From NCBI GenBank assembly GCA_043228905.1, contig JBHGNT010000011.1:4464001-4528000 (forward strand): a stretch of 64,000 nucleotides of DNA. The letters run 5' to 3'. The translations under genes were made by a program, and so were the position numbers. Shown here piece after piece: positions 11,016 through 50,863 of the stretch. The notes below the pieces were generated by a model. The model was not told the origin of the DNA. It worked only from the letters and a program-made list of their open reading frames with translations, and ran no database searches. How positions within the stretch are numbered: position 1 is the stretch's first letter; every line of letters begins with the position of its first letter. The DNA is from Azolla caroliniana (lineage: Eukaryota > Plantae > Polypodiophyta).

Positions 11016-11103
<88 letters not shown>

Positions 11104-18900: not shown

Positions 18901-18967
18901 TGCATAGGGCAAGATTTGAACCTTGTACCTCCACGTAGCCAAACCTCAACTTTACCATTATGCTACC
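18901..18967 (-). promoter_or_regulatory. tRNA-derived Pol III A/B-box cassette in LTR (second copy 21390-21456)
   Basis: Reverse complement reads TAGCATAATGGTAA...GAGGTACAAGGTTCAAATC with tRNA spacing, followed by TTTT about 25 nt downstream. Confidence 0.7.
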
Positions 18968-19706
18968 TTATCTTTAGTGTTTTATAAATAGATTTAATAA
19001 CTATAAGTGCTTTATTTGCGCCTACCTTTATTAAAAGGTAAATCATGTATTTTTAGAGTGCGTGAATATTTTATAGAAAAACGCAAGCGACTAAAAAGTG
19101 ACTCATGCACATCTAGCGTGCATGAGCACTATATTTAGCAAATAAAAGCAAGGATTAGAAAAGCATCACATGCACATTTAGTGTGCATGAACATATTAGA
19201 AAAAAAAGCATGTAGCTATGCTTAGTCTCTCCCATCACTACATAAGGATGGGGAGCACAATGTAATAGGTGTGTGAAAAATATTTGGGAAATTGGATATA
19301 TTTCCTAAAACACCAACAATCAATAAAATATACTCGTGGGATTCACGAAGTTTAAGATAATCTATCTCTTTCAATCTAAATTCATATTCTTACATAAATA
19401 TTGATTAATGTAATACTTGTGGGATTCACAAGGTTTGATCTCTTTTCTCAATCTACTCTAATCTATTCTAAATTATTTCAATTTATTACTACGATTTAGA
19501 TAAACTAAAACAATTATACTTGTGGGATTCACAAGTTTCTATATCTCTTTCTTATAATCTATTCATATTCATAACTAGATTAGCCTCAAATTCTTCCTCC
19601 TCCTAGTCCAAAACCCCGGTGGTTCCCACCCGACTCATGCAAACGATCCGGAGCCGAAAGGCACGACACAGTTGGTGAACCCGACGTGAAGGCGGGTGGC
19701 AAGGAG

Positions 19707-21335
19707 ATGGAGAATCAACAAGAGGCGATGAACATGATGATGATGATGTTCGAGAGAATGCTACAAGAACAACGCGAGATGTCGGAGATCACGACAGTAG
19801 TACAACGGCTCGTGCAACAGAACGGGCAATTCGATGGAAAGGACGTGTCACGCTATCTACGTGACTACAAAATGGAGATGTTGCGATATGGTATCTCAGA
19901 AAGATTGCAAGTGTTATCTTTCAACCGGGTGGCTACGGATGAGCTTCAAGAGAGAATCCACGAGATACGACAACAAAGCCCGATGTGGGAGTCCTTTGAA
20001 GAAGCTATACGAGACACATATGACTATCTAAGACCGAAGCGGACGAGGACATGGTCCACGAACGGCGGTCAACAGTGGGTGAAAAGCGGCCACCGACTAC
20101 CACCGAAGGAGAGCTTGATGCGGAAGGGTTCGGAGATGCATGAAAAGTCGCAAGTCGACATTGAAGGGGAGCTTAAAACCGAACCAAAGTTGAGGCCAAC
20201 AAAGGACGAGGAGGAGGAAGATCGAGGACGAAAGGGTATCCCCACACCGGTTCCAGAGACTTCGGCGGTTGTGCCCGTGCACCAACGTGAGACCGGAGAG
20301 ACGGAATGTGTCGGTGGAAAAGTGGAGGACCGGAAGGGCAACGAGGAAGACAAAGTAAATGAGCACGAACGAAGGGATTCCTTCACCATTGTTTCGGAGA
20401 CTTCGGTACTGGAGCCCGGGTGTCGACATAACACCGAAGATAAGGAAAGTGGCGGCAACGAAACGAAGGTCGAAGCCGATGCATACGAAGGAGAGATAGC
20501 CAAGGAGAACATGGCTATGGGTGAAACAACGGAAGATGATAATACCGAGGATTCCTACCCACTAATTCTAGAGACTTCGGCGGTTGTGTCCGAGAACCAA
20601 CGTGAGACCGGAGAGACGGGAGGTGGCAACAAGGAAGGTAAAGTCGGAAGCCGGTTCGGATGGAAGATGATCCGTCTGAAATTCCGATGTAAACAAAAGC
20701 ATGACAACGCGAAGGTCGGGTCTACGATGGGAGAAGCATGTAATACGGAGCACGCACTACGGCACCAAAAGAAGCACGTGCTACGGCGTAAAGAGAAGCA
20801 CACGCTACGGCGCAAAAAGAAGCACGCGCTACGGTGCAAAAATAAGTATGCACTACGGGGTAATACGGCGCATGCACTACGATGGAATACGAAGCATGTG
20901 CTACGGCCTAATACGACGCATGCGCAACATCGAGAAATAAAGCATGCATTAAAGCCGCACAAGGACCTAACAGCGAGCGCGTATTCGGAGGTCGACATCG
21001 ACGCGTGGGTAGAACCTACGGAAGACAAGCGCGGAGTGGAGAGAGACAACACACCGAGATGCTCAAGAGTACCACAAGGGACCATGACAACCACTCATGG
21101 CAATGCAAAGAATGAACAAAGAATATGGTGGATCGGATGGCGACAATGGTTCGGGTGGAAAGAATGGGTCTACTCAAAATGGAGAGACAAAGTTGACATA
21201 GCGGGACAAACGGAGGATGAAGGGGAGACAACGAGCATCGGCAACTTCGGCACATACCGGAGGATGTGCGGGTTCGGAGGGGGCGAGTGTCGTAGTGTAT
21301 TTCGTACACTACGTGAAAAAGTAAAAATAATATAA
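19707..21335 (+). CDS. Gag-derived protein with acidic PETSAVV repeats, 8-aa basic repeats and a Trp-rich motif
   Basis: N-terminus (QNGQFDGKDVSRYLRDYK...WESFEEAI) aligns with the Gag of the gypsy at 36595. No pol domains. The ORF ends inside the 3' LTR. Confidence 0.8.
   Translation: MENQQEAMNMMMMMFERMLQEQREMSEITTVVQRLVQQNGQFDGKDVSRYLRDYKMEMLRYGISERLQVLSFNRVATDELQERIHEIRQQSPMWESFEEAIRDTYDYLRPKRTRTWSTNGGQQWVKSGHRLPPKESLMRKGSEMHEKSQVDIEGELKTEPKLRPTKDEEEEDRGRKGIPTPVPETSAVVPVHQRETGETECVGGKVEDRKGNEEDKVNEHERRDSFTIVSETSVLEPGCRHNTEDKESGGNETKVEADAYEGEIAKENMAMGETTEDDNTEDSYPLILETSAVVSENQRETGETGGGNKEGKVGSRFGWKMIRLKFRCKQKHDNAKVGSTMGEACNTEHALRHQKKHVLRRKEKHTLRRKKKHALRCKNKYALRGNTAHALRWNTKHVLRPNTTHAQHREIKHALKPHKDLTASAYSEVDIDAWVEPTEDKRGVERDNTPRCSRVPQGTMTTTHGNAKNEQRIWWIGWRQWFGWKEWVYSKWRDKVDIAGQTEDEGETTSIGNFGTYRRMCGFGGGECRSVFRTLREKVKII
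20741..20956 (+). repeat. Coding tandem repeat, 24 bp x about 9 (xKHALRxx)
   Basis: Units such as taaagagaagcacacgctacggcg. Confidence 0.85.
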
Positions 21336-22161
21336 CCGATTTAATTACATATAAATAAATAAAATAAGAAAATCAAGATATTTATCACGTGCATAGGGCA
21401 AGATTTGAACCTTGTACCTCCACGTAGCCAAACCTCAACTTTACCATTATGCTACCTTATCTTTAGTGTTTTATAAATAGATTTAATAACTATAAGTGCT
21501 TTATTTGCGCCTACCTTTATTAAAAGGTAAATCATGTATTTTTAGAGTGCGTGAATATTTTATAAAAAAACGCAAGCGACTAAAAAGTGACTCATGCACA
21601 TCTAGCGTGCATGAGCACTATATTTAGCAAATAAAAGCAAGGATTAGAAAAGCATCACATGCACATTTAGTGTGCATGAACATATTAGAAAAAAAAGCAT
21701 GTAGCTATGCTTAGTCTCTCCCATCACTACATAAGGATGGGGAGCACAATGTAATAGGTGTGTGAAAAATATTTGGGAAATTGGATATATTTCCTAAAAC
21801 ACCAACAATCAATAAAATATACTCGTGGGATTCACGAAGTTTAAGATAATCTATCTCTTTCAATCTAAATTCATATTCTTACATAAATATTGATTAATGT
21901 AATACTTGTGGGATTCACAAGGTTTGATCTCTTTTCTCAATCTACTCTAATCTATTCTAAATTATTTCAATTTATTACTACGATTTAGATAAACTAAAAC
22001 AATTATACTTGTGGGATTCACAAGTTTCTATATCTCTTTCTTATAATCTATTCATATTCATAACTAGATTAGCCTCAAATTCTTCCTCCTCCTAGTCCAA
22101 AACCCCGGTGGTTCCCACCCGACTCACGCAAACGATCCGGAGCCGAAAGGCACGACAACGT

Positions 22162-23180: not shown

Positions 23181-26100
23181 CTCTATCCATCGTTCTTCTT
23201 GTTCTTCTTCGTCAAGCTGTGTCGGCTGCAGAGAGGTTCTCAACCCTCGCGCTCTGATACCATGTAGAAAATAGCGTGCGGAAGCAAGTATAAAGACCGA
23301 ACAAAAGGGAGGAAACTCAGGTTTAATGGAGAGCTTGAGCTTACACGGTGTACGCAGGAGAGACAGAGAGAGAGAGACAAAAAACTATATTCAATAATAA
23401 TACTCAGTCTGTATTCACCACTCTATACACATGTGTGTTCCATGAACACTTTTATACAAGTCCTAGAAGGACTGATAGAAGTACTGACAGTACTTCAATG
23501 CTCATCAAGAGCTCCTACACTAACTCCCAAATATATTCCTCACGGAATATCTTTCCTAACGACTTCCCGGTTTACGCACTCGGCCTAACCGATCGGTCCC
23601 AACCGATCCGGTCCTCGGCTTCTTCAGCCGATCCGGTCGATGTTGAGCTTGTCTCTCAACACTAGTCTAGTTTTTCCAAATGGGACAATGTGAATACGAC
23701 CATTATGTACCCGTATTCGACACAAACATGATCTCAACTCTTTGTCAATGGTTATGTTATCGAATAATTCTTTTCTTCAGTAATATATTCTCTAGGGCAT
23801 GCCATAGGATCACTACAAAATCTCAACTTGCACACAACACATTAATTAAGATAAAATCAATTTGCAATATATTATGCCACATCATAGCCCTAAAGCAAGT
23901 ACATGCCCACCCTTGAGCTGTCATTTGTGTTGGAAATAGCGTGGAATAATTCTCCGCCACAACCGAGTCTTGAATCACTTTGTTGAGAATCAAACACAGA
24001 AATGGGGTTGGAGATTAGTACATGTACACACACGAACAATAGAGAGTACACAGGATGTTTACGTGGAAAACCCTAATGGGGAAAAACCACGGGAGCCCAC
24101 AGACTCCAAACTATCACTATATAAGAAAGGTACAATCAGAGACTCGGAGGCAACGAGCTCGAGCTCTGTATCTTCGCCAAGCGGCGGTTACAACAAAGTA
24201 TCTCTCTGCATCACCTCTCTCTCTATACAACAATTATGCACATACAACAATATGACAACACTACCTTTTGTGATTGCCTTAAGTCATATTTATACTCATA
24301 TGAACTTAGGGCTATTTACAAATACAATGCATAAAAATCGGCATTGCTAGTAAAACTAGGATTTCCAGGATGACGGTACTATCCCTCCTCACCGAACTAG
24401 CCTCAATAGGCTTACTCAAAACATATTTACAAATATTTCTTCTCTTCCGGTTCTCACTGGGTCCATCCGATCTGGTTTCCAGATCTCTTCTGGTTCTCAC
24501 TGGGTCCTCTTCATTCATAACCGGATCCCAGCCGGAGGGACTGACTTCCCAACAATCTCCCCCTTCACTCTGGCATGGGATGTCACGTCAACCCGATTTG
24601 CTTTCGGCATGCATCCAGCTTGTCAGTTATCAACACCTCGGTTAGCATATCCGACCTGTTCTCCTCTGTGTGGATCTTCGTTATCACGAACTCTTGATTT
24701 TCTACTCTCTCCCGGAACTAGTGGTTCCTCTGCTGGATATGTTTTGTCCAAGAATGGTAGGCCGCGTTCCTCGCAAGGTGGATGGCACTTTGATTGTCGC
24801 AGTAGAGTTGATATTCCTCATGTTGGGTCCCTCGCTCTCCGATGAATTCCTTCATCCAGATTATCTGCTTGCCGGCTTCCACAACTGCCATGTACTCCGC
24901 CTCCGTGGTTGACAACGCAACCGTCTTCTACAGCCTCGACTGCCACGAAACAGCTCCCCCTGCATAAGCATGACATATTCGGATGTAGACCGGCTAGTAT
25001 CTGAATCAGCCGACATATCCAAATCAGTGAAGCCTTCCAAGAGGGTTTTACCGGAGCCAAATCAGAGGCACATACTCGAGGTGCCTTTCAAATACCGGAG
25101 TACCCACTTTACCGCGTTCTAGTGCTCTCTTCCGGGATTGCTCATGAACCGGCTCACCACTCCGATTGCATATCCGATATCCGGCTGGATACATACCATC
25201 GCGTACATCAAGCTTCCGACGGCAAAGGCATATGGTATTTTCATCATATTTGTCTTCTCTGCCTTTGTCCTCGGACTTTGTTTTCCGAAAGTGTCGATTC
25301 GACGGGTTTCGCCTCCGACATGTTGAACCGTTGAAGCACCTTTGCCACGTACTTCTCCAGTGACAACCACAACAACTTCTTCGACCGGTCCCAGATGATG
25401 TGCATTCCCAATATCTGTCTTGTCGGACCCAAGTCTATCATTGAGAACGTCTGGTTTAGAGCCTTCTTTAGCATCCAAATCTTGTCTTGGTCTCGTCCAA
25501 CGATCAACATATCATCCACATATAGGAGTATCAGGAAATATTCTCCATCAAATTTCTTCACAAACATGCAGTGATCAGCTTGCGTCTTGTGGTACCCTTG
25601 GTCGATCATGAAGGAGTCGAACTTCCGGTACCATTGCCGGGGATCTTGCTTCAGTTCGTATAAGCTCTTCTTCAACCGGCACACCAAATGCTCCTTCCCT
25701 TTCTTCACAAATCCTTCTGGTTGCTACATGTAGATATCCTCTTCCAGGTTACCATGGAGGAACGCCGTCTTTACGTTGTCGTGCCTTTCGGCTCCGGATC
25801 GTTTGCGTGAGTCGGGTGGGAACCACTGGGGTTTTGGACTAGGAAGAGGAGAGTTTTAAGGCTAATAAGAATATAAATATGTTGTAAGAAAGAGTTATAG
25901 CAAACTCGTGAATCCCACGAGTGTATTGTATTAGATTAATCAATATGAATATAAGAATATAAACTTCGGTTGAAAGAGAATGATATAGAATTCTCGTGAA
26001 TCCCACGAGTATAGTTTATTAATTGGTGTTTTTTTAGAAACATATCTAGTTTCCAAATATTTTTCACACACAATTACATTGTGCTCCCCATCCTTATGTA

Positions 26101-26343
26101 GTGATGAGGAAGTCTTAGTAATCCATGCTTTTTCTCTAACTATAGACCCCATGCTTTTCCTATAGATAGACTATATGCTTTATCTAAAGTGATCATGCTT
26201 TTTTCTAACTTGTGCGTTTTTTATCATGCACGCTAGATGTGTATGTGTAGGTTTTTCTTTTGTTATGCGTTTTTCTAATGTTTATCCTAGCGTGAATTTA
26301 CCTTTCTATGTGGGACATCTATGCTTTAACACTAATGAAATGC

Positions 26344-26402
26344 TAGTGTAATGGTAAGACATTACATTATTAACATGGAAGTGCAAGGTTCAAATCTTGC
26401 CC
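26344..26402 (+). promoter_or_regulatory. tRNA-derived Pol III A/B-box cassette in LTR (second copy 29100-29158)
   Basis: TAGTGTAATGGTAAG...GAAGTGCAAGGTTCAAATC, followed by TTTT at ~26419. Confidence 0.7.
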
Positions 26403-26562
26403 TATGCATGTTCCATTTATTTTGCTATTTTCTTCTATTTCTTCATTTTTTATTGAATCTAATACTATATACGTTTTTCACGTAGTGTACAAAATACACT
26501 ACGACACTCACCCCCTCCAAACCCGCACATCCTCCGGTATGTGCCGAAGTTGTTGGTGTTTG

Positions 26563-28494
26563 TTAGTCTCCTCCTTCATCCTCCGTTTGTCCCGCTATGT
26601 CAACTTTGTCTCTCCATTTTGAGTAGACCCATTCTTTCCACCCGAACCATTGTCGCCATCCGATCCACCATATTCTATGTTCGCTTTTTGCATGGCCCGC
26701 TTGGTCCTTGTCATCCGCGGTAGTATCTTTTCTTGCCCTCTTTCTTTTCTTCATCAATCTCGACTTCTTTTCGGATTTTCGGTTTAGTCGGATTAGCTTA
26801 CTTCCGATTCGGTCTCGTCGGATCGTCTTTCGTTTAGTTCGGCTTCCTTTCCGATTTGTATTCGGTCGATCCGGACTCGGTTGATCGGTTTTTACCGATT
26901 CAGTGCTCTTTCGGGTCGGTTTCTTTTCTTTTCTTTTCGTCCGGATTTGCTTTCTTTTCTTCGTTTTCACCTGCCTTGTCCGGTTCGACTTTCGGCACTT
27001 CTTTCCGTTGTTCGCCACGTAGGTCCTCCGATATGTGCTCGTTGTTCGGTCCTCGTGTGGTTGTAATGCATGCTTCTTTTCTCGCCGTAGCGCGTGCTTC
27101 TTTATTCGCCATAACACGCGTTTCTTTATTCGCCGTAGAGCGTGCTCTGTATTACGCGCTTCTCCCGTCGTAAACCCGACCTCCGCATTGTCGCACTTTC
27201 TTTTAGATTGGAATTTCGGATGGATCATTTTCCATCCGAACCGACTTCCGACTTTACCTTCCTCGCCGCCATCTCCCGTCTCTCCGGTCTCACGTTGGTT
27301 CTCGGACACAACCGCCGAAGTCTCTAGATATTGTTGGCATGAATCCTCGGTATTACCTTCTTTCGTAGTTTCACCCTTAGCATTCTTCTCGGCTATCTCT
27401 TCATCGTATTCGTCGGCTTCGACATTCGTTTTCTCTCCGCCACCTTCCGTCTCTTCGGTCTCACGTTGCCTTTCGATCGCAACCGCCGGAGTCTCTGGAA
27501 TCAGTGGTGGGGAAGTCTCGATATGGAAATCCGCCATTGATTCGTCCATAGCCACCTCCGATTCGATTTCGTCTTTTGTGGCTACCTCCTTAATCACATC
27601 CGCTTCACACTCTTTATCTGCATCAATTATGCAAACATCTATTATGCTTACCCCTTTTTGACCCGATGTCTCGGGCACTTGTATCTCGAAATTTCCTTCT
27701 ACACTTGAATTATCGGCCTTATCCTTCGCCATCGTTCTTTCACAAGACGAGTGGGTGTCTTGTTCCACTCTTTCTCCCGTGGTACCATCATGTTGTATTT
27801 CGGCCTTCATATTGGCTTCATCGTTTTTCCTCAATCGACCATCCTTCATGGGCCATGTCGTTGTTGACGAGATTCTCAGCTTCCTTTCATCATGTCTTCG
27901 GCATACCCTTTCGACTTTAGCCCAATCCTCGGTAAGGCCGTTCGCACCGTCATCATCTTCGAGTTCGATCCCAATGTCCATCCTTTCTTTCCGATCGATC
28001 GATCTTACGAACATTAAGACTTTATCTCCTCCCACCAATCTTCGTTCCCGCTCCGAGAGTCGAGCAAAACGATGCTCGAACTCTAGGAACGCTTGCGTTG
28101 CACTTCGGTGAGTCTTCTCCGACGCCACCCATTAGTCGAATTCTCGTCGATCTCGTCCCGTCCATCTCTCATAGTCATATGCCTCCCGTAAAGCTTCTTC
28201 AAAGGACTCCCATGTCGAGTTTTGTTGTTGTATCTTGTGGATTCTCTCTTGTAGTTCGTCCGAGGCCACCCGACTAAAGGATATCACTTGCAATCCTTCC
28301 GGTATCCGATATTGCATCATCTCCGCCTTATATTCACGTAGGTAGCGTGACACACCCTTACCGTTGAATTCCCCGTTTCGTCGCAGAAGCTGCTCTACTG
28401 CCGCCTTCATCTCCGACATCGCTCGTTGTTCTTGTAGCATCCGCTCGAACATCATCATCATCGTTATGCTCATTGCCTCTTGTTGATTCTCCAT
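26563..28494 (-). pseudogene. Gag-derived ORF of about 640 codons with one in-frame TAA (28132-28134)
   Basis: ORFs 28132-28515 and 26563-28128 are in the same frame and homologous to 19707-21335 and to the gypsy Gag (LEDD..ANGL..DW..V). Confidence 0.8.
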
Positions 28495-31400
28495 CTCCTT
28501 GCCACCCGCCTTCACGTCGGGTTCACCAACTGTGTCGTGCCTTTCGGCTCCGGATCGTTTGCGTGAGTCGGGTGGGAACCACTGGGGTTTTGGACTAGGA
28601 AGAGGAGAGTTTTAAGGCTAATAAGAATATAAATATGTTGTAAGAAAGAGTTATAGCAAACTCGTGAATCCCACGAGTGTATTGTATTAGATTAATCAAT
28701 ATGAATATAAGAATATAAACTTCGGTTGAAAGAGAATGATATAGAATTCTCGTGAATCCCACGAGTATAGTTTATTAATTGGTGTTTTTTTAGAAACATA
28801 TCTAGTTTCCAAATATTTTTCACACACAATTACATTGTGCTCCCCATCCTTATGTAGTGATGAGGAAGTCTTAGTAATCCATGCTTTTTCTCTAACTATA
28901 GACCCCATGCTTTTCCTATAGATAGACTATATGCTTTATCTAAAGTGATCATGCTTTTTTCTAACTTGTGCGTTTTTTATCATGCACGCTAGATGTGTAT
29001 GTGTAGGTTTTTCTTTTGTTATGCGTTTTTCTAATGTTTATCCTAGCGTGAATTTACCTTTCTATGTGGGACATCTATGCTTTAACACTAATGAAATGCT
29101 AGTGTAATGGTAAGACATTACATTATTAACATGGAGGTGCATGGTTCAAATCTTGCCCTATGCATGTTCCATTTATTTTGCTATTTTCTTCTATTTCTTC
29201 ATTTTTTATTGAATCTAATACTATATACGTTTTTCACGTAGTGTACAAAATACACTACGACAACGTCTAGTTGCTCTACCTCGAGGTCCATGCTTGCCGC
29301 TATGGTCAGCACTGTCCGGATGGAAGTCATCTTAACTACCAGGGCAAAGATCTCGTCGAAATCCACTCCTTTCTTTTGCTGGAACCCCTTCAACACGATC
29401 CAGCCTTTGTACCTCGGTGGGTTTCCGGCATCTCCCGGTTTTAGCTTGTACACCAACTTGTTCTGGAGTGCCCTCTTTCCTTTCGGCAACTCCGTCAGTT
29501 CATACGTGTGGTTCTCATGCAGGGAATCCATCTTGTCCTGCATGGAACTCAACCACTTGCGACTGTGGGTATCTTTCTTTGCTTCTTCGAAGCTTTCCAG
29601 CTCCCCCTCATCGGTCAACAATATGTGGTCTGCATCTGGAAATCTCCGAGGGGCTCTTTTCTCTCGGAAAGGATATCTCCGTCCTTGGTTTCTGACTTCC
29701 GGTTCCTTCATTTGTTCTTCATCCGAATCCGATTCGGGATCTTGTCCGATTCTGGTGTCTTCTTCTTCTTCGGTCGGTTCGGTTTCTTGTCCGTATCCGG
29801 CCGGTTCGTCGAGTGTCATCTGGTTGCCGGCCAACATCCGGTTTTCAACCGGATAGGACCTTGTGTCCTCAAACCGGTTTTCATTGGATGATCTGGAGTT
29901 CATCATCATCTTCTCTGACTCCCAGTCTGCAATGGTCTTGTCTTCCATGAAGACTATGTCCTGACTCTGGAACACCTTCTTGTCGACCACATCCCACACC
30001 TGGTAACCGAACTCATCATCGCCGTATCCAAGGAATATGCATGGCCTGGACTTCGGATCCAACTTTGCTCTCTTGTCCTTTGCCACATGCACATAGGCGA
30101 GACACCCGAAGACCTTCAGATGCCGGTAAGATACATCTTTACCGGTCCATACTTTCTGCGGTGAGTCTCCTTCCAAGGGTGTTGAGGGTGATCTGTTTAT
30201 CACATAGGTCGCCATCATCAGCGCCTTAACCCAAAACGTCTTGGGTAACTTTGCATATGCCAGCATGCTCCATACTCTCTCCATCACAGTCTGGTTCATC
30301 TGTTCGGCCAACACGTTCAATTCCAGCGTCCTTGGCACGGTAAATTCGAGCCGGATTCCCTTCGACCGGTGTCGTGAAGATCCGTCACTACACGCGGATC
30401 GTGAGGCGGAACTGCCGGGGTTCTGGACCGGAAGGATTCAAAGTCGGTACAAGCTTTGGCGCAAGCTTTAGCCATCGTCGGTCCGGTTTTGGTTGGCCAA
30501 AACCCTTTACGAGTAGCTAGCCCACCTCCACTCTTAGTTCAAGTTACCTTGAACTCTCTATGCTCCATACATAGACACAAAGATAATAGTTTTTACTCTA
30601 CCTTATATATGATGAGAGCCGTATTTGTCGTGCCTATGTGTGATATCTCACAATTTTCTCTTTTCCTTTCACAAACTTTATACCCTCATATCTTGACATT
30701 TAGTTATCCGTTTCTTGTGTAATAAAGTGCATTCGAAACCTCCATCATTTTGTACTTAGATATTAAATTTATTTAAAATGTTATCTTCACAATTTTGTAT
30801 TATGTGATTCATACTCGATTTTGTACGTTTTATGGGATTTTCACACTATTGCCGAAAATCTTCACGACATCCACCCCCACCAAACCGCACGTCCTCCGGT
30901 ACGTGCCAAGAAGAGAGAAAGTGAGATTTCGGCTACGGTGATCAATTAGATTCCTCCATGCCTTCATTTACATCCGCCCTATTATGTTCATTGTCGAGGT
31001 GATCGAGGTCAGGATCCTTGTCTTGTCTTTTCTTGAAAATCTTTACTCTTTTTCCCGCAATGGGTACGACCAACCTTGATCCGTCTAGTTCCGCAAGGTG
31101 GTATGTGGCATTATCGTTGGCACTTGTCACCACATACGGCCCGAACCATCTTCTTGCGAACTTCCTTGTTGTCCTGTGTTGATTGTCAAGGGTGCTGTCG
31201 TAAACCAAAACCCAATCCCCTTCTTCAATCTTCTTGGGATGAAGTCGATGCGTGTTGTCGAACCGAACTTTGTTCTTCAGTCGGGCTGCCTCCATCATCT
31301 TTCGCGCTTTTTCTAAATCTTCAGGTCTTCTTTCAAGTTGCCTTATCCGCACCGCTAATAACTCTTCTCGGCTCATCTCGTTCTCCCACGGTATCGCTAC

Positions 31401-32247
31401 CCATGAGGCGATCGTCCTTTCGATGGGCATAATCGGCTTTTGTCCATACATAAGCTCTGTCGGCATATACCCTATCACCGAGCTATGTGTCGTTCTATCG
31501 GCCCACAAGGCATAGGGTAATAGTCGTGGCCCGACCGTTGCACGCCCGTACGATGGCTTTAACGATAGGTCCATGCCCTCGCTCGATCTTCCCATTCGCT
31601 TCGGGATTGTAGGCAGTCGTGAGGGAGAGCTTCACGCCTAGTCTTTCGAAGAGCTCCGTCGCTTCGTGTGCGTCCAACTCCCCTCGGTCGGCCACTATCT
31701 TCCCTACACATCCATATCGGCAAACAACCTCTTCAAGCAGAAATTTGCAAACGGCTGAAGTCGTCTTATTTGTCAAGGCTTGTCCTTCCACTTGATTTGT
31801 CAAGTCTTCCCTTGCCAGCGCTAAGTACTTCATTTGTCCCACTCCCATTGGCATCGAGACCAGATCCACCATCCATTTGAAGTGTATGGTGAGTGGGTAT
31901 GTCGGCTGTAACTCATCACGATGACGTATATTTGAATATATTTGGCAAGTTTTGCATGTGGACACGAAATGGAGTACATCTTTGTACATGCTTGGCCACC
32001 AATACTTCTCCTTCAACTTTTCGAACGTCGCCCATGTTCCTCTATGACTTGCCCAGGCACTCTCGTGGAATTCGGTCATCAGCGTCTCTTGCTCTTCTTT
32101 CTTTACCACCACTCGATGTGGTATTCCTGTCCTTCTTTTTGGATGTCGCCAAAGGAATCCTCCCTTCAAGAAGTATTGGTAGGTAAGCTTTCTTTCGGAT
32201 TCGTGGGGCCTCCTCCTTTATCAACGAAGCATCTGTCGTCAATGTTC

Positions 32248-33837
32248 TTAGAATCTACCAATGAGTAACCACTCTCCTTCGTACTTGTTCTCGTTGAAGG
32301 CGTGGAGGGTTTGCGTGTCCTGGTCTTCCGCCGACAATCGAGCCATCTTGAAGAAGTCGAGGGCGACATCTTCATCTTCCGAAACCATGTTACTTCCATT
32401 TGAAAATCTTGCCCTCGACAGCATGTCAGCCATGGCGTTCTTCTTCCCTGCAATGTGACGGATCTCTGGGTTTAAAGACTTGATGTAGGCGATCCACCTT
32501 AGCATAGCAAGATCTGGGGTCGCACATCCCGAGACCATTCCGAGAATTGGGAGACAATCTATCTCTATTATCACTTCTGACCTGATCAGGTAATCTTCGT
32601 CCGTCTTTACTGCCAACACAATACCCCAAAGTTCCCGCTTGACTTGGGCATATCTTTGTTGTCGTTCACTGAGAACCTTTGCTCCGAACCGGACGGCATA
32701 TCGCGCATTATCTTCACCTTCTTGATTGATGACCCACCCGATTCCGGTTGGGCTCGTATCTACGGTCACGTAAATTGGTTTCCCTTCGGCATAGTCGGCC
32801 TTCCATAGTGCCGGAGCTTCAAGAAGCAATTTCTTTAATCTTTGCATCGCATTTGTGTGCTCATCTCGCCATTCGAACTTCATTCTTTTCTTTATTAGTC
32901 CATATAATGGTTCGGTGACATGAGCGTAGTGAGGAATCCATATATGATAAAATGCGCACGCTCCAAGGAACCTTCGAACCTCCGTTTGGTTTTCGCATTC
33001 TTCTTTCATGTCTTGGATTGCGTTCACTTTGGATGGCGAGGGCTTCTGGACGTATGCTCCACACAAGTGACCTACCACCAAGATCTCCGGTTGCCCGAAT
33101 GCGGATTTTTCTCCCGAAAATGTCAAATTCGCATCTTCGAGCCTTTGAAGCACCTTCTCGCAATCTTTCATATGATCTGCAACGAACTTTCTACAACCTT
33201 CCTTATCTTTCGATTCATCTTTCTCCTCATCAGACCATCCTTTTATCGGAATATCATCCAAGAATGGCATCGTGATGTCCGGGATGCAATCCTTCAAGAC
33301 TTTATTCATGGCATTCACCATATGAGCCACCGAGTTCGTTGCGCCTTGGGGTAAGGTACACATCCGCACAAGCCCGATCGGAGTCCTCATGGTTGTAATG
33401 TCCCGACTGTCCATCGCCAATTGGAATTGGTCATATCCGGAGTAGAGATCGCCAATGGAGTAGATGAACCGGCCCGCAAACGCTTCGGCAAATTTGTCCA
33501 CGCTCGGACCGATTCCGGCATTTCTAATTGTCACCTTGTTGACGGGTTGAAGATCTTGGATGAATCGCAATGATCCATTCTTCTTCGGCACCGTGAACCA
33601 CCTATTGGAATAAGGAGCATTCGACAGTTCTAGAATTCCCATACTCACCTTCTCCTTTAAGAGCTTGATCAGCTTCGGAAGCTGTGCTCTCGGAACCGGT
33701 ATCGGTTTCAAATTCCAAGGCACATGAGGCACCGTGAAGATCACCATCGGCTCTATAACCTTTGGGTCGGCGCATCCGATTTCTCGTGGGAAGAATGCGA
33801 AAGCCTTCCCATGTCTCTCAAGCATATCGCGAAACAT
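32248..33837 (-). CDS. Gypsy reverse transcriptase and RNase H fragment
   Basis: 529-aa ORF with KKNGSLRFIQDLQPVN, DLYSGYDQ, FLDD and VDTSPTGIG. Confidence 0.9.
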   Translation of the reverse strand: MFRDMLERHGKAFAFFPREIGCADPKVIEPMVIFTVPHVPWNLKPIPVPRAQLPKLIKLLKEKVSMGILELSNAPYSNRWFTVPKKNGSLRFIQDLQPVNKVTIRNAGIGPSVDKFAEAFAGRFIYSIGDLYSGYDQFQLAMDSRDITTMRTPIGLVRMCTLPQGATNSVAHMVNAMNKVLKDCIPDITMPFLDDIPIKGWSDEEKDESKDKEGCRKFVADHMKDCEKVLQRLEDANLTFSGEKSAFGQPEILVVGHLCGAYVQKPSPSKVNAIQDMKEECENQTEVRRFLGACAFYHIWIPHYAHVTEPLYGLIKKRMKFEWRDEHTNAMQRLKKLLLEAPALWKADYAEGKPIYVTVDTSPTGIGWVINQEGEDNARYAVRFGAKVLSERQQRYAQVKRELWGIVLAVKTDEDYLIRSEVIIEIDCLPILGMVSGCATPDLAMLRWIAYIKSLNPEIRHIAGKKNAMADMLSRARFSNGSNMVSEDEDVALDFFKMARLSAEDQDTQTLHAFNENKYEGEWLLIGRF

Positions 33838-37203: not shown

Positions 37204-37249
37204 CCTTGTATATGTATATATGTATATATATTTATATATTTATTTATCT

Positions 37250-37460: not shown

Positions 37461-40401
37461 TTCGGTTTTGGTTGGCCAAAACCCTTTACGAGTAGCTAGC
37501 CCACCTCCACTCTTAGTTCAAGTTACCTTGAACTCTCTATGCTCCACACATAGACACAAAGATAATAGTTTTTACTCTACCTTATATATGATGAGAGCCG
37601 TATTTGTCGTGCCTATGTGGGATATCTCACAATTTTCTCTTTTCCTTTCACAAACTTTATACCCTCATATCTTGACATTTAGTTATCCGTTTCTCGTGTA
37701 ATAAAGTGCATTCGAAACCTCCATCATTTTGTACTTAGATATTAAATTTACTTAAAATGTTATCTTCACAATTTTGTATTATGTGATTCATACTGGATTT
37801 TGTACGTTTTATGGGATTTTCACACTATTGCCGAAAATCTTCACGACACCGGTAGTACTCCTCGAACTGCCCCCGGTATTCTCCTCCGTTATCTGCTTGA
37901 ACCGCCTTCAGCTTCCGGCCGGTTTCTCTTTCCACTCTCGCGTGGCACTCCTTGAAGACGGATAGCGCACCTGATCCTTTGTCTTCAGCGGTGAGACCCA
38001 CATCTTCCGACTGTGGTAGTCTATGAACGTCACAAAGTACTACGATCCGGCATGTGACATCATGTCCACTTGACACACATCGGTATGCACCAGCTCTAGT
38101 GGTGCATTCCGTCTCATCGGTGGTCATGACTAGAAGGAGGTTCGGTTTTGCTTTCCGGCCAAGCAATCGGAGCACTTCTCAAGATGCACGTCTTTCACCT
38201 CCGGAATGAGGTTGTCTTCGGCAAGTCTTCTCATCCCCTTCTAGCTCATATAACACAGTCTCTTGTGCCACAGCTCACCGGAAGTGTCAGATGCTACGTT
38301 CACTTCTTCCTAGCATATCCGGGCATGCAGAAGATATAGCGTGTTGATCTTCCGGGCTCGAGCCACAATGAGGCTTCCTTTTCTGAATTTCATGACTCCG
38401 TTTCGGATGCTACCCGTGTAGACTTTTACCGGTTATGGGGACTCCGGTTTCGTTGTCTTCCTCTCTGTGCTTCCGATTCGGTAAGGAGGGTTTTAGAGTC
38501 AGAGATCACTTCTTTGTCTTTCCGACACGCCTCTTCATCTAGCAAGCTTGACTTAACTCTTGCTAGGGACAACTGTTTTCCTTCCGGCCCGGCGTTGCCC
38601 AACATGACAACTAGCGTCTCCCAACTATCCGGGAGGGAACCGAGCAAGAGTAATGTGAGTACCTCATCGGTGAGAGGTACTTCCAACGAGGTTGCCTGGT
38701 TTATCAGTCCCTGGAAGGCATTCATGTGCTTTGCCATACTAGAGCCGTCCTAGTACCGGAGCCTCACTAGCTTCCGGAATACAGAAACCCAATTAACAAC
38801 ATTCTTGTTCAGGAACGTGATGCCGATATTCTCCCAAAGTTCATGAGCCTTGCTCTCTTCATTGAAATTGTTGTACAGGCTCATGTGATGAAGCACTGGA
38901 TTATACCGTCGTCTTCATGTGCATCACCTCCCACACTATGGCGTTGATCTTATCCGGTCTCTTGTCCCCGAACTGAACCGGCAACCAAAGATCTTTAACC
39001 ACTAGCATATCCTGCATCTTCGACTTCCACATTGAGTAGTTGGAGCCGGTGAGCTTGAACATGCCGCCGAACGATTCTTCCATTTTCCTATGTTGTTCGC
39101 TTTGATACCAGTTTGTAGGAAATAGCGCGGAATATTGCTCGTCCACAACCGAGACTTGAATCACTTCTTTGAGAATCAAACACAGAAATGGGGTTAGAGA
39201 TTAGTACACGTACACACACAAACAATAGAGTGTACACAAGATGTTTACGTGGAAAATCCAAATAGGGAAAAACCACGGGAGCCCACAGACTCCAAACTAT
39301 CACTATATAAGAAAGGTACAATCACAGACTCGAAGGAAATGAGCTCGAGCTCTGTATCTTCGCCAAGTGGACGTTACAACAAAGTATCGCTCTGTATCTC
39401 CTCTCTCTCTATACAACAGTTATGCACATACAACAATATGACAACACTACCTTCTATGATTGCCCTAGGTCATATTTATACTCATATGAACTTAGGGCTA
39501 TTTACAAATATGTCTTCTCTTCCGGTTCTCACGGGGTTCATCCGATCCGGTTTCCAGATCTCTTCCTGTTCTCACCGGGTCCTCTTCATTTAGAAATGGA
39601 TCCCATCCGGAGGGACCGACTTCCCAACAATTTGCATGAGGAACCAAACACTACTATGAAAGTTTGAGATGTGGAGGTTGATCGTATGGTTGAGACATTA
39701 ACCCTTGATGGGTAAGCTAACAAATATTAACACCTATTGTTAAGACTATGGTTTGGATTACGAGTAGTGTGCATGTTGAGAATACCTTGGAGTTAAGCTA
39801 ACGATGCATGTGTTGACTCTTAAGATAGAGGGGTCAACTATAACTTACAAAAACTTAGTTGCTCAATCATGATCCATACAACTACTCGATAATATTGATA
39901 TAAAAATGGTGATGAAAATATCCTTGAAACCAAGGGTGAAAGAATTTTGAATGGCATTCTACTAGAATGGAATATGAAAATAAAAGGACATATAATTATC
40001 ATAGGTCAAACACAAAGTTCTCAGTCCTTTGAGATGTATACTTTTGAAAGTTGAGGTTGTGATTGCTCTTCAGTGCAAGGGTGCAAAGTGAGTTGATGTA
40101 AGCAATCATTGAGGCGTAGTTAACAAGAATCTGGTGTTATTCACTGTTGTCAACTCAACATATTGGTGGGATTGACCCATCAACACATACTCAAGCCTAG
40201 AAACTGTGGTGTTAGAGATCAAGGTCCAAGGACGAGTTGCATTTATCTATAACAAGTGTCTAGTACTTATGTTATGGGTTCATAGATCCATTGACACATT
40301 TTTTATGCGCGGGTGATGACTACATACTAACAAAGATGTCTTAAATATGTGGCCAGTGGAGAAGAAGAACACCCCGGAGTCCTCCTCCCCCAAACGAACC
40401 T

Positions 40402-42207: not shown

Positions 42208-42391
42208 GTATTGCCCCCACTTGACTTCTAGTTCTATCTATTTTGTGCTTTGTATATGAGAAATGTAGTCATGGGAATGGTCCATTACAGCATTTGAAAT
42301 GTATTTAGAACTCGTAATTAGGGCCTATTTAGAAAACCCATTACCTGTGGTTTTTCCATGAACTATTCAATATTTGTAAACCTCATTTGTG

Positions 42392-43238
42392 TAAATAACA
42401 GGGAAAAAAGGAGCCTTAAAATCACTGATATTGAACTTGCATGGTATGTCTTAGTACTTTTGTGACTAAATAAATTTGGAACATCAGTGATGTCAACGCT
42501 AATAGCATTGCTTTCACATAATTGGATCAGTGTATACCATAGCTTGTCCTCTTTATATCATTCCAATGTTGATTTCTCATTCCTGGAGTGCTTGAATTTT
42601 GATAAATAACAGGGAAAAAAGGAGCCTTAAAATCACTGATATTGAACTTGCATGGTATGTCTTAGTACTTTTGTGACTAAATAAATTTGGAACATCAGTG
42701 ATGTCAACGCTAATAGCATTGCTTTCACATAATTGGATCAGTGTATACCATAGCTTGTCCTCTTTATATCATTCCAATGTTGATTTCTCATTCCTGGAGT
42801 GCTTGAATTTTGATAAATAACAGGGAAAAAAGGAGCCTTAAAATCACTGATATTGAACTTGCATGGTATGTCTTAGTACTTTTGTGACTAAATAAATTTG
42901 GAACATCAGTGATGTCAACGCTAATAGCATTGCTTTCACATAATTGGATCAGTGTATACCATAGCTTGTCCTCTTTATATCATTCCAATGTTGATTTCTC
43001 ATTCCTGGAGTGCTTGAATTTTGATAAATAACAGGGAAAAAAGGAGCCTTAAAATCACTGATATTGAACTTGCATGGTATGTCTTAGTACTTTTGTGACT
43101 AAATAAATTTGGAACATCAGTGATGTCAACGCTAATAGCATTGCTTTCACATAATTGGATCAGTGTATACCATAGCTTGTCCTCTTTATATCATTCCAAT
43201 GTTGATTTCTCATTCCTGGAGTGCTTGAATTTTGATAA
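42392..43238. repeat. Perfect tandem repeat, 211 bp x4, in the PPR intron
   Basis: Units start at 42392, 42603, 42814 and 43025. No differences seen by eye. Confidence 0.95.
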
Positions 43239-43243
43239 TCTAG

Positions 43244-46364: not shown

Positions 46365-47853
46365 GTGGCCTGATGATCGTTTGGAGCGGCTACATAAGAT
46401 ACAGGCGGATTTATCTACTCATCTACAACAAGCTCAACAAACACACAAGGTTTACGCGGATCGTCATCGGCTTCCATCTAGTTTTAACATTGGAGATCGG
46501 GTGTGGCTACTACGACGACACATGAAGACTACTCTACTCGCCCATGTGAGAAGTTGGATTATCGGCGATTAGGTCCTTTCCGTATTATTGGAAAGATTAA
46601 TGATGTCGCTTTTCGTCTCGATCTACCTCCACAGCTACGGATACATCCGGTGTTCCATAGTTCTCTCCTAGAACCCTATCAGGATAGCACCATCCCAGGT
46701 CGTATTAAACCACCTCCACCCCCGATCGAACTTGAAGATGGACCTAAGTACGAGGTTGCTACCATCCTCGATTCCAAGATTGTTCGCAACAAGCTCTACT
46801 ATTTAGTTGATTGGCTAGGATATAGTCCCAACGAGCGCACCTGGGAACTGATAGAGAATGTGACCAATGCTCGTGCTCTTCTTGAAGACTTCCATTGTCA
46901 ATATCTAGACAAATAAGGTCTTCAATCCAAAACAACTCGTGACATTCATCGTTTTAAAGGGGGGATAGTGTCATGATATGACAAAACTCAAACCCATGAC
47001 CTTATGTTACATAGGTCGAGCTCTTACCATTAGGCTATGTATTGTAATACGAAAGATATTATTTTCATTTAAGTTTAAATATAGAAAATTGATGTATATT
47101 CCAAATTTCTTTGTAACATTCTAGAAACTTCAGGAGTACTCCTGAGAACACTATAAAGGAGGCACAAGGCATTATTTCGAACCAAATCAATTCAACGCCA
47201 GTCTTAAGCCTCCTAGTTACTATTGTATATTCCCTTAACATAATATATCTTTTGTTATCCTCATTCTGTCTCTCTTGATCTCTCTCACTCACTCACTCTT
47301 TCCTTCCCTCGAGAGCTCTACACCTCCCTTAGTACTAATCCTCATCTTTTAGTTCTAATTCCTTCTGTCAGAACCAAGAGAGAAGGTAAAGTGATAGAAG
47401 AAAGATATAAAGAGATCACAAGAAGAGGAATGAAATGATAAGAGAAGAATGAATGTATTAAAGTAGAATAAGAATGGATACAAGATAGGCGATGAGAGCT
47501 TAAGACTGGTGTTGATTCGAATTGGTTTTGAGAAGAATTATATGTCCATATTTATAGGTTCCTATAGAATAACCTAGTGATTTCTATAATGTTCTAGAAT
47601 GTTCTAGACCTAGAATATTCTAAGATGTTCTAGGATGTTCTAGAATATTTACAATATCAGTCTATTACAAGAAGTAGCTTTTATTATTTTATATAATCAT
47701 ATGTTATCTTAATGGTTAGGTTCTTGATTATGTATTACAAGGTCTTGGGTTCAAGCCCAAGTGAAGCCACATAATGTTCATGGATTCATGACACCTTCTC
47801 TATTTTAGTATTGTTCCTGACAGTACTTGTTTGTCTTAGTACTGCTCCTGACA
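46365..47853 (+). mobile_element. Tcn1-like chromovirus 3' fragment: integrase C-terminus, chromodomain, PPT, 3' LTR 46969-~47853
   Basis: KLDYRRLGPF, IHPVFHSSLLEPY, YEVATILDSK...YYLVDWLGY..NERTWE. PPT aaggggggatag precedes TGTCATGA. Confidence 0.9.
47366..47793 (-). mobile_element. Solo LTR (Tcn1-related) inserted in the LTR at 46969; TSD CCTTC
   Basis: TGTCAG...ATGACA with CCTTC at 47361-47365 and 47794-47798. tRNA-like cassette at 47705-47762. Confidence 0.85.
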
Positions 47854-49372
47854 GGTACGACTCGATGCCACGGGATGGTATGGGACGCCGATCGAGGCTC
47901 GAGTCCGTCTCGGTCCCTTCGCTCGGGGGTGGTCGGGTGGATCGGCACCATTCTTTCTCTCTCTCCTTTCTATCTATCTATCTTTTATCCTTATGATATA
48001 CTTACATTAGATCATATCTCTAATAATTGACATCTTCATTGTTAATGGGTTGTTGTACATCATTTCTAGCCTTGTACTTTCTTTCTCCTCAAACAACAAC
48101 CCACTCCACGCCATCACATCATCTCTCTTTCAACTGGCATAAGAGCGAGAGGGTTTCATTGTTAAGAATTTTTGTCTCATCAAGTGATTGTGCACACAAC
48201 AACATGCGATTTTATCTTTTTTGGTGAATTTGTTTTTTAAACTATAATTTGCAAACATGACTATTACCTCATCTAATCTCAAAAGCTTGTTTGAGATCAA
48301 GAGATTTCAAGGTAGTGGTTTTCATTTATGGAAAGAGAGAATGTTAAGCATTCTCTTTCTTAAAGATTGTGAAGGGGCACTTCTTGAAGTCAAGCCTATG
48401 TAAATCAAGTACATCTCATATGTAAGTTGGTGTGTATGAAACTTGATGAGTCAAAAAGTGTAGTTGAGCACTTATCTCCCTCTACAACTACTCTCTCATT
48501 ATTACAAGACTCTAGATTACCTCCCTTTGATGAAGCAAATAACAAGTTTAAGGAAAAGGCCAAAGAGAAAGCCAATGTAACCTCTACAGTCATCGTTGAG
48601 GAGCCATCAAATGTAGAAGATATTCTTTGTGCTACCATGACAACAAATCACGCTGAAGTTAATGGTGCTTCTATTTTTATTGAAGCACAGGATATGCAAA
48701 TTACAAAGAGAAATTTAATTGATGCCTTGCTTACACTCAATGATGCTTTGCCACAAACATGGATCAAGTGGATTTAGGTACATCATTCCTATTAAAAAGT
48801 GTTTTACTACCTTTCATGCAGGCAACCATGTACATGTATATCTTGGAAATAACCATGCTTGTTCTATACAAGGTATTGGCGTAATGCATATCATTGCGAA
48901 TGGGCTACCTCAACTCAAGAAGGCAATAGGCAACCGAGATGTTGTATTTGATGAGCCAAGTGTACTTAAAAATGATTGTGCCTCTAAGTGTGACCATATA
49001 AGAGTCAAACTTAAATATGATATGAACCCTTGGGATGCACCTCGTTTGGTTGGAAATAATATTGAACTAGTGGTTATTGAGCTAGATATTGTTGGACAAC
49101 AAAATGACACTCCTAATGGGTACATGCAACTACCTACTCATGCTGAAAACAAGGCTAGAAATGATGTACAACAACCCATTAACAATGAAGATGTCAATTA
49201 TTAGAGATATGATCTAATGTAAGTATATCATAAGGATAAAAGATAGATAGAGAGAAAGGAGAGAGAGAAAGAAGGGTGTTGATCCACCCGACCACCCCCG
49301 AGCGAAGGGATCGAGACGGACTCGAGCCTCGATCGGCGTCCCATACCACCCCCGTGACGTTGAGCCGTATCT
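47854..49372. repeat. Inverted repeat of about 220 bp (47854-48075 and 49149-49372) flanking a collapsed copia relic
   Basis: Direct reverse-complement match. The spacer holds copia gag and protease remnants (RFQGSGFHLWKERM, VYLGNNHACSIQGIG). Confidence 0.9.
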
Positions 49373-50793
49373 GGTGTTGGCGTGCTCGCTACAAAAGTGG
49401 ACCCACCACGAAATAGAGTGTCGACGTAGTCAAAGAATGATCAAATGAGGGTAGTTATGCCTCATATTTATAGCGATACCCAAGGGCCCCATGCAAGTTC
49501 ACACTTGGCCTAATGGGTTGTCTCAATCCCGAGGATTAATGTAATCCTCCCTTTCTTTACACTCTCGTTTAACCCTCACACTTATCCACGTGTATAGGAT
49601 TTTAAATTCTCGGATTTCTTTAGTACGCAAATTTTTTGTTTTAACATCAAGAATTCTTTCTGGTACATGTGGTTTAGAAGATAATTCTACAGAAGTAACC
49701 ACAGTTTCAATTGTAACTGTATTGTTGCCAGAACCTAGAAGTTCTTTTAGACAACTTACATGAAAGACTGGATGAATTTCAACACCGTCGGGAAGAGCAA
49801 GACAATAAGCTAATGAACTAATGCGTTTGAGGACTGTAAAAGGTTCACAAAACCGTGGGGCTAACTTAGCACACTTACCCGTAGACAATGTCTTAGAATT
49901 GTGAGGTACACGTAAAAATACCTTCTGTCTAGGGTTGAATACACAAGGTTGCTTATGATGATCGACATAAAAACATGCTCTATCTTGAGTTGTTTTTATA
50001 TTATCTCGTGCAATATGCAACATATCTTGCATATCGCGAAGAAAGTTTTGCATACTTCGCAACTCATCATGATGTATATTAATATCAATCGGGACTCGTG
50101 GCTGAAAACCATACATCAAAATAAAAGGACTATATCCCGTCGATGTATGCTTGGAGCTGTTATAAAAAAATTCCGAAATTGGGAGATAACGTTCCCATTT
50201 TGTTGGTTTTGCACAAACGTATGCTCGAAGCATGTCCTCAATAATTTGATTTATTCGTTCTGTCTGTCCATCGGATTGAGCATGATTCGTGGAGCTCATG
50301 CTCAACGTAGTTTCTAACTACTTAAAGACTTGCGCCCAGAAGTCACTAGTAAACTTTAGATCTCAATCACTCACGATATCCATCGGCAACCCATAAAAAT
50401 GAAATAACTCGTTAACGAATTGGTAAGCCAATTCAGGAGTTGTCAACCACAACCCATATGGCATCATGACCTTTTTGGGTGCAAGGAAGGCTAACAATAA
50501 AATCCATGGATATACTTTCCCATTTATTATTGGGAATGTCCAATGCATGTAAAAGTCTTGCGACTTTAAGTCTCTCGGCTTTGTTAACCTGACACTTGTG
50601 ACATTTAGTCACATAGCTATGTATGTCAGGACGCATCTTAGGCCAATAGAATTGAGTGGAGATGAGAACGAGTGTACGATGTATTCCAGGGTGCCCTATT
50701 GAAGGTGCATCATGGCAAATCTGGAACACAAACCTTCCCATTACGGTAGAGCAGACAGTTGGCAATGTGGAAGTATTCCTTTGAGGATGTGGT
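49218..50793 (-). mobile_element. Degenerate gypsy (chromovirus-like) integrase region and partial 3' LTR ending at 49218
   Basis: CHDAPSIGHPG, WESISMDFI, SDGQTERINQ, IHPVFHVSCLK and PERILD. LTR with TATA ends ...tacttaca on the minus strand. Confidence 0.85.
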
Positions 50794-50802
50794 TGTCATG
50801 AG

Positions 50803-50863
50803 ATGGCAAGACTCGAACCCATGACCTTATGGTATATGGGTCGAGCTCTTAACCATCTCACCA
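50803..50863 (-). promoter_or_regulatory. tRNA-derived Pol III A/B-box cassette at the U3 edge (homolog 46978-47038)
   Basis: Reverse complement TGGTGAGATGGTTAAGAGC...AAGGTCATGGGTTCGAGTC. The homolog reads TAGCCTAATGGTAAGAGC...AAGGTCATGGGTTTGAG. Confidence 0.7.

Follow-up and report, generated by a model that had tools for sequence, protein, structure and literature searches.

Antisense tRNA-like A/B-box units in the long terminal repeats of Phygy-like and Tcn1-like gypsy elements of Azolla caroliniana

The RNA polymerase III (Pol III) promoters previously known in long terminal repeats (LTRs) lie in tiny TRIMs (miniature terminal-repeat retrotransposons), where they drive the element, or in some retroviruses, where they make microRNAs (miRNAs). 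The Helenus/TRIMp3 elements have transfer RNA (tRNA)-derived sequence in both LTRs, with boxes A and B conserved and no functional tRNA (Kojima 2024, PMC10886601). One plant family of Helenus is described, from Selaginella, and capture of a short interspersed element (SINE) has been proposed as the origin (PMC10886601). Here, tRNA-like A/B-box units were analyzed in the LTRs of gypsy elements of Azolla caroliniana, in a 64,000-nucleotide stretch of contig JBHGNT010000011.1 (assembly GCA_043228905.1, positions 4,464,001 to 4,528,000, forward strand), hereafter the window. As judged from LTR alignments, the unit is a real LTR module maintained by selection, and what it retains is, by the same comparisons, a DNA-type promoter consensus together with an AGGT motif.

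The units differ from the described systems in several respects. Helenus elements are non-coding and 311 to 1263 bp long, whereas the units of Azolla lie in gag or gag-pol elements of 3.4 to 7.5 kb that keep a TATA-like motif. The Helenus unit is in sense orientation in three LTR consensus sequences and is read as the element's own promoter, whereas the intact units here are antisense in U3; Kojima argued that autonomous partners depend on Pol II and would not be expected to have LTRs of the Helenus type (PMC10886601). Thus, LTR boxes A and B of tRNA derivation are shared with Helenus/TRIMp3, but the small non-coding form and the sense orientation are not, and a decayed sense unit in six LTRs, described below, bears on the latter. 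Cassandra and Ajax also have an internal Pol III promoter in the LTR, but theirs is of the 5S type 1, occurs in TRIMs and drives the element transcript (via PMC10886601). The miRNA genes in the LTR of simian foamy virus are likewise A/B-box Pol III units in an autonomous retroelement (PMC3993851). They have a defined hairpin, a terminator and a proven RNA, whereas the present units share neither a hairpin nor a terminator and follow the 44-nt geometry of a tRNA.

A preliminary description of the window was aware of no report of such units, which stands in part: tRNA-derived LTR boxes are known from Helenus, but there they belong to TRIMs and point in the sense direction. The open-access literature yielded no description of an antisense A/B-box unit in LTRs of the Phygy or Tcn1 lineage, with Repbase reports and subscription journals outside that scope; Repbase contains "not a few LTRs" with tRNA-like parts (PMC10886601). 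The words "polymerase III," "tRNA-like," "promoter" and "SINE" do not occur in the text of PMC6317226, which treats Phygy and Tcn1. For LTR motifs of this sort, the citations in the accessible part of a sugar-beet paper from 2026 are limited to Cassandra and Helenus/Ajax (PMC13570524), and tRNA copies are present at the primer binding site (PBS) of a Culex element (PMC3286476).

Nested copia, gypsy and long interspersed nuclear element (LINE) sequences surround a PPR gene in the window. All eight of its A/B-box units sit inside gypsy LTRs, antisense to the host element. The hosts form two groups, Phygy-like elements (E1 to E3) with a tRNA-Trp-type PBS and a 4-bp NCGN target site duplication (TSD), and self-priming Tcn1-like chromoviruses (E4 and E5, with the more distant E4b). 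The E1 units lie at 18913 to 18965 in the 5' LTR (minus strand; T8, in tRNA numbering, at 18965, A box 18955 to 18965, B box 18913 to 18922, followed by a T4 run at about 18880 to 18883) and at 21402 to 21454 in the 3' LTR (minus; T8 at 21454). Those of E2 lie at 26344 to 26396 in the 3' LTR and 29100 to 29152 in the 5' LTR (both plus; T8 at 26344 and 29100). E3 has its unit at 37139 to 37191 (plus; T8 at 37139), with a C56>T change and a TATA-like motif 186 bp downstream; this unit is present in the 5' LTR only, 710 bp from the LTR edge. The E4 unit is at 46985 to 47037 (minus; T8 at 47037), 113 bp upstream of a TATA-like motif, and some 16 bp separate the start of its B box from the LTR tip. 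The E4b and E5 units are at 47705 to 47757 (plus; T8 at 47705) and 50810 to 50863 (minus; T8 at 50863), respectively. A remnant at 11110 to 11143 (plus), which runs from the anticodon arm to GGTTC and lacks the A box, lies in a truncated E4/E5-type LTR (10924 to 11143, minus).

All these units can be numbered as tRNA positions 8 to 61 without gaps, and the distance from T8 to G53 is 44 nt, or 45 nt in E5. A single 1-nt gap, for an extra base in the E5 D loop, suffices to align the six distinct units. An A box and a B box at tRNA spacing, as in a type-2 Pol III promoter, recur throughout. An untrained generic pattern (RVTGG, tRNA spacing, GTTYRA) matched the 64 kb eight times, exactly at the eight units, whereas 100 local dinucleotide shuffles gave a mean of 1.46 and a maximum of 5 matches. 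No unit was found in copia-type LTRs, either in six stretches scanned or with profiles run over the whole window. On all of these points (the eight units and the remnant with their positions and strands, the spacing, the host range as judged by PBS, TSD, chromodomain and leader pairing, and the lack of units in copia LTRs), the preliminary description was confirmed.

Conservation was highest in the boxes and AGGT. In 11 pairwise LTR alignments, 170 of 204 box columns (83%) and 45 of 48 AGGT columns were identical, compared with 160 of 216 (74%) in the anticodon arm, 635 of 879 (72%) in the flanks and 4604 of 6382 (72%) in the rest of the LTR. The excess in the boxes gave Fisher p values of 0.0003 to 0.02, although the alignment pairs share sequences. 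Gaps occurred in 1713 of 8095 columns elsewhere in the LTR but in 0 of 636 unit columns. When deep groups were compared, the boxes and AGGT alone scored, with the other columns at background. In 17 units (E5 was omitted because of its spacing), 273 of 289 box positions fitted TRGYnnARYGG / GGTTCRAnnC, a consensus taken partly from PMC10886601; the box columns were part of the profile by which these units had been identified. The anticodon arm had been described as wholly different between families. A strong difference was seen between distant families (7 of 18 positions identical between E1 and E2, 8 of 18 between E4 and E4b) but not between E4 and E5, which share 15 of 18.

Contigs matching the E5 unit were collected from four sequencing runs of four organisms (1085, 1326, 559 and 440 contigs; 80% likeness filter), and beyond the window the Tcn1-type evidence comes solely from these. 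Among 12 variants at frequencies of at least 8%, none fell in 50794 to 50829, which holds the B box and AGGT. Four rows lay in the anticodon arm, and the A-box changes were at positions 9, 12 or 13, which are degenerate, or restored A14. In the E1 family, G57, which gives a full-consensus B box, accounted for 65 to 84% of the depth (among 40 of the 155 variant rows). CpG content gave no sign of protection.

In contrast to the boxes, the tRNA fold was lost, as had been proposed and as LTR alignments, stem counts and deep-group columns agree. ARAGORN predicted no tRNA in the units, and Rfam RF00005 did not match them even at E ≤ 10, while it detected true tRNAs in the fetched loci L068 and L050; no unit has the cloverleaf of a tRNA gene. 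A covariance-model signal, one of the checks suggested beforehand, was thus not obtained with the Rfam tRNA model, which is expected if the fold is lost, and a sequence-only model detects the units where that model fails. Pairing was retained at 40 of 126 positions in the acceptor stem, 37 of 72 in the D stem, 43 of 90 in the anticodon stem and 67 of 90 in the T stem, and the RNAalifold consensus had three pairs at -0.04 kcal/mol. A TTTT terminator with an RNA of about 90 nt had also been predicted for the Gag-only elements. In E1 and E2, a T4 run would indeed end an RNA of 87 to 93 nt, but across families the first T4 is 59 to 327 nt after T8 or absent (within about 100 nt in 11 of 18 units). 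Because the terminator is not conserved, a 90-nt RNA would not be a common product. Folding of the units revealed no pre-miRNA-like hairpin common to the families, and a conserved hairpin with terminator of the foamy-virus type was lacking.

The intact units were all antisense and lay 113 to 272 bp upstream of a TATA-like motif, which was found in 14 of 15 LTRs. They therefore stand back-to-back with the presumed Pol II promoter. The B box is 16 to 26 bp from the LTR tip in Tcn1-like LTRs, as the preliminary description had noted, and RNA from units in Tcn1-like 5' LTRs would be mostly flanking DNA. The distance to the tip is 119 to 710 bp in Phygy-type LTRs, and placement at the outer edge does not apply to E3, at 710 bp.

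A second, more decayed tRNA-like unit was detected in element-sense orientation in E3 (36826 to 36880, minus), downstream of a TATA-like motif, with a score of 42.8 against a shuffle maximum of 5.8. Model R1 and a box scan identified this unit, with a spacing of 45, in six LTRs (L085, L089, L097, L065, L081 and E3). Its T8 lies 73 to 76 bp downstream of the TATA-like motif in three loci, and leave-group-out scores were 18 to 45 versus shuffle maxima of 9 to 12. The earlier claim that every copy is antisense thus holds for the intact upstream units but not for these weaker ones downstream of TATA. Because five of the six LTRs with a sense unit also hold an antisense unit, the promoter in these LTRs is bracketed by two outward-facing units. 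A sense unit downstream of TATA is a new observation, though it may instead be a Helenus-like relic.

Other sense-oriented boxes were seen in Phygy-type LTRs. In one family that lacks the antisense unit, B-box units with a wider A-B spacing lie in sense orientation, singly or as a pair, within the 3' half of the LTR (L067, 1591 to 1794, plus; L057, 2275 to 2328, plus). A lone sense GGTTCRAGRC, B-box-like and without an A box, has a fixed place in U5, 58 nt from the 3' end, in GC-rich unit-less LTRs (L051, L072, L044, L045, L062, L068 and L090).

Independent loci came from a metagenome scan by LTR end and PBS that was blind to the unit and gave 122 loci, 80 of them with long flanks. A presence profile built from five window units was used to score the 65 loci with at least 400 nt upstream. 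The antisense unit was present in 9 of these 65 Phygy-type loci, with scores of 18 to 51 against a maximum of 13.7 in 325 shuffles; L093 was a tenth locus, with the unit in its 3' LTR. L085 and L089 had two units each, and in two loci a tandem duplicate retained both box sets. Mapped on a tree of U5-PBS-gag DNA, for which 27 of 40 rows provided sufficient sequence, unit presence needs six changes, at least four of them forced by well-supported branches and one due to the doubtful L033, entered as unit-less. Thus, the unit behaves as a U3 module that is gained and lost. The unit-bearing LTRs (n = 15) were AT-rich (GC 0.31 to 0.43), and the largest unit-less families, among 27 LTRs, were GC- and CpG-rich (0.50 to 0.55); possibly these are two promoter strategies, the families not being phylogenetically independent.

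The blind, PBS-selected loci, the family contigs and the LTR alignments agree with the expectation that the units are family-wide instead of sporadic SINE insertions. Of dispersed copies outside LTRs, there was none in the window and one weak non-LTR match (L083) in the 80 loci; the two best sense scores, 20.4 (L050, in a tRNA-iMet-like gene) and 16.8 (L083), both lay outside the LTRs. Contigs matching the E5 unit seldom continued into unlike sequence (share 0 to 0.01), so free SINE copies are not evident. As to the donor, the units scored alike against the tRNA-Arg and tRNA-iMet-like genes in the loci, and none is singled out; the D arms and some loops presumably resemble Arg, Lys or Glu types. 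Between Tcn1 and Phygy units, the non-box columns are at background, so common descent is not supported.

Two of the loci contained tRNA-like genes near a Phygy-type LTR. In L068, a tRNA-Arg(CCG) gene (1151 to 1223) lies about 200 bp outside a 5' LTR and points away from it, a geometry like that of the captured units. In L050, decayed tRNA-iMet-like copies about 370 bp apart (2244 to 2315, 2614 to 2685 and 2983 to 3042) lie upstream of an LTR end. Candidates from other searches were discarded: all 31 matches of the PBS pattern in viral contigs were unrelated phage DNA, and all nine matches of the polypurine tract (PPT) pattern in genome contigs were prokaryote records, L159 having no LTR on inspection. 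The Tcn1 chromodomain query of viral contigs gave no match and the PPT pattern 0 matches.

By TSD, size and Pfam domains, E1 to E3 are best described as Phygy-like. E1 (18799 to 22157, plus; 3.4 kb) is a non-autonomous element with a PPT, a 4-bp TSD (ACGT), LTRs at 18799 to 19668 and 21288 to 22157 that are 99.8% identical, and a single gag-derived open reading frame (ORF) at 19584 to 21335. Its relative E2 (25777 to 29262, minus; 3.5 kb; TSD ACGT) has 99.7% identical LTRs (5', 28533 to 29262; 3', 25777 to 26506) and a gag-derived ORF interrupted by a stop. Both carry the same type of PBS, whose isotype in Phygy-like elements we take to be tRNA-Trp, and their gag-derived ORF is related to the start of the E3 gag (31% over 99 aa). 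Short hairpin motifs are repeated three to four times in R/U5 of their LTRs (19330 to 19530 and 28620 to 28780). E3 (30370 to 37848, minus; 7.5 kb; TSD CCGG) is a gag-pol element with several broken frames, encoding protease, reverse transcriptase (RT), ribonuclease H and integrase, with no chromodomain match in Pfam; its named RT homologues are from Riccia and Adiantum. Its 5' LTR (36663 to 37848) has two TATA-like motifs and a compound appearance. The 3' LTR (30370 to 30869) lacks a 685-bp segment equivalent to 36766 to 37450, which contains both units and the inner TATA-like motif. Because L065 is colinear with the long form, that form is the family norm.

E4 and E5 are Tcn1-like, as indicated by the chromodomain of E4, the leader pairing of E5 and Tf1/Sushi-like Pol with homologues in fungi and vertebrates. 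Phygy is described as a short non-chromovirus with a 4-bp NCGN TSD, and Tcn1 as self-priming with a chromodomain (Neumann 2019, PMC6317226). Taken alone, the lineages of the elements point to a moss or another non-seed plant as the likely source of the DNA. Both E4 and E5 encode pol domains. E4 is a 3' LTR (46969 to 47822, plus) preceded by a PPT and by a chromodomain ORF (46488 to 46916; PF00385, with Y-W-Y cage residues by eye). It is split by E4b (47366 to 47793, minus), a solo LTR with a 5-bp TSD (CCTTC) whose assignment to a more distant Tcn1-type family follows from its LTR ends only. E5 is a 5' LTR (50794 to 51221, plus) with gag-pol downstream, and its leader (51224 to 51235) pairs with its own LTR over 12 nt, as in the self-priming type. 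A 100-N gap (53890 to 53989) interrupts the E5 pol and is followed by an open LINE ORF2 of 1249 aa (54299 to 58048; endonuclease and RT). Elsewhere, perfect 211-bp tandem repeats in the PPR gene region (42385 to 43238) may have arisen by recent expansion or as an artefact of the assembly, and inverted repeats of 204 to 225 bp with 95 to 97% identity (47852 to 48075 and 49149 to 49373) are about 1.07 kb apart.

We suggest, at somewhat less than even confidence, that the unit would act as DNA: as a portable type-2 Pol III promoter, it would form a TFIIIC/TFIIIB platform opening or shielding the LTR promoter. A tRNA gene or the head of a tRNA-derived SINE would have been captured into U3 and then spread and lost via U3 exchange. 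TFIIIC would bind the B and A boxes. A kept A box at tRNA spacing implies TFIIIB loading in Pol III biology, so TFIIIB would be loaded upstream of the unit, on the side toward the Pol II promoter, with Pol III running outward. This would confer a nucleosome-poor, barrier-like edge on each new copy in repeat-dense chromatin, and in some Phygy LTRs the promoter would also be flanked on its opposite side by the sense unit, which lies some 75 bp downstream of TATA. More tentative, with perhaps a third of our credence, is the fuller proposal that two distant autonomous plant LTR lineages independently built outward tRNA-gene promoters, sometimes flanking TATA, as a TFIIIC/TFIIIB anti-silencing boundary. 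The mode of action proposed here, Pol III factors on DNA that shape nearby chromatin and Pol II transcription, is that of the tRNA gene (tDNA)/TFIIIC barriers and extra TFIIIC sites of yeast and of B2 SINE boundaries, but those are host loci or SINEs, whereas here the module is built into the LTR; action in plants is not shown in the accessible parts of that literature (PMC9540200, PMC4228148, PMC8136502). TFIIIB/TFIIIC barriers occur in yeast (PMC9540200), Pol III complexes alter neighboring Pol II transcription (PMC4228148), and Pol III factors are described in plants (PMC10533338).

Alternatively, the Pol III product may be what matters, an outward or antisense RNA serving as small-RNA precursor, decoy or regulator over U3, the PPT and the integrase end, and tuning the element or host silencing. 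A transcribing promoter requires the A box and spacing that are kept, the T4 positions of E1, E2 and 11 of the 18 units would allow a short RNA, hairpins in some units reach z values down to -6, and the foamy-virus genes are a precedent (PMC3993851). However, terminator, length and fold are not common to the units, no pre-miRNA-like hairpin is shared between families, the unit strand folds no better than the opposite strand, and Tcn1-like 5' LTR transcripts would be mostly flanking DNA; we consider this explanation unlikely, though not negligible. A role in integration is less probable still: TFIIIC near the U3 tip would tether cDNA to chromatin, or the Pol III sites of LTRs would be landing pads for Pol III-targeting elements. 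The B box close to the tip of Tcn1-like LTRs, the landing of E4b some 330 bp upstream of the unit in E4 and the back-to-back arrangement of L068 with a true tRNA-Arg gene would fit, but the support consists of single anecdotes. The NCGN sites occupied by E1, E2 and E3 are within other elements and have neither a tRNA nor a unit close by, and Phygy-type units are far from the tip.

If the unit were only the leftover of an ancient SINE or tRNA insertion, carried neutrally in U3, this would explain why the anticodon arm is no better conserved than the rest of the LTR, why presence is patchy and why AT-rich or T-rich tails follow some units, and for Helenus an origin by SINE capture has been proposed (PMC10886601). 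This explanation, of only slight probability, is largely refuted by the persistence of the boxes and their exact spacing in two lineages with all else at background, by variants confined to degenerate positions and by the near absence of E5-unit contigs continuing into unlike sequence. Marginally fainter is the possibility that the tRNA complement in the U3 of the sense transcript pairs with the primer tRNA in genomic RNA and aids strand transfer. The sequence embedded in HIV-1 U3-R is reportedly tRNA-Lys3-like and matches the primer tRNA. HIV-1 U3-R, as cited in PMC6468702, is thus a precedent for a tRNA complement in U3, and the antisense orientation required for such pairing is the one seen. 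Here, however, the inferred Trp primer is unmatched: the PBS implies a primer T-stem 49-53 of RCGTG, whereas the units have G52 in 17 of 18 cases and stems of the CAAGG or ATGGG type. In addition, self-priming Tcn1-like E5 nonetheless has a unit, and variation tracks the protein-binding consensus, not one tRNA. Other explanations combined are given a small probability, similar to that of a role in integration.

Several observations weigh against the platform model. Twenty-five complete Phygy-type LTRs with a credible 5' end have no unit (27 were examined; L033 and L060 were dropped for doubtful 5' ends), and because the unit is absent from these and scattered on the tree, it is dispensable; in L040 it is decayed. 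The excess of box identity is modest, was obtained from pairs that share sequences and concerns units detected by a search profile that itself covers these columns. The B box of Tcn1-like LTRs adjoins the LTR tip, which is conserved in any case. AGGT is retained better than the boxes, which the model does not account for, and C56>T, at a CpG, occurs in 3 of 18 units. Local hairpins are found around the B box in some units (mean z -1.3, both strands alike). The unit of the 3' LTR is head-on to Pol II as it makes the genomic transcript, and in yeast the progression of Pol II is blocked by tDNAs (PMC4228148). Mouse B2 boundaries lowered neighboring expression, which is the opposite sign (PMC8136502).

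A backward-facing unit kept by selection in coding gypsy elements fits neither the TRIM nor the retroviral use of Pol III promoters. If the platform model holds and TFIIIC is recruited, thousands of LTRs in such genomes would be sites of Pol III factors, affecting chromatin, replication and antisense transcription. If the unit is truly an anti-silencing boundary, it would amount to a counter-defence acting in cis with borrowed Pol III machinery, and would be the first indication that tDNA barriers operate in plants. Sister families with and without the unit, together with E3, which has it in one LTR only, would allow a direct test of tDNA-type barriers in plants.

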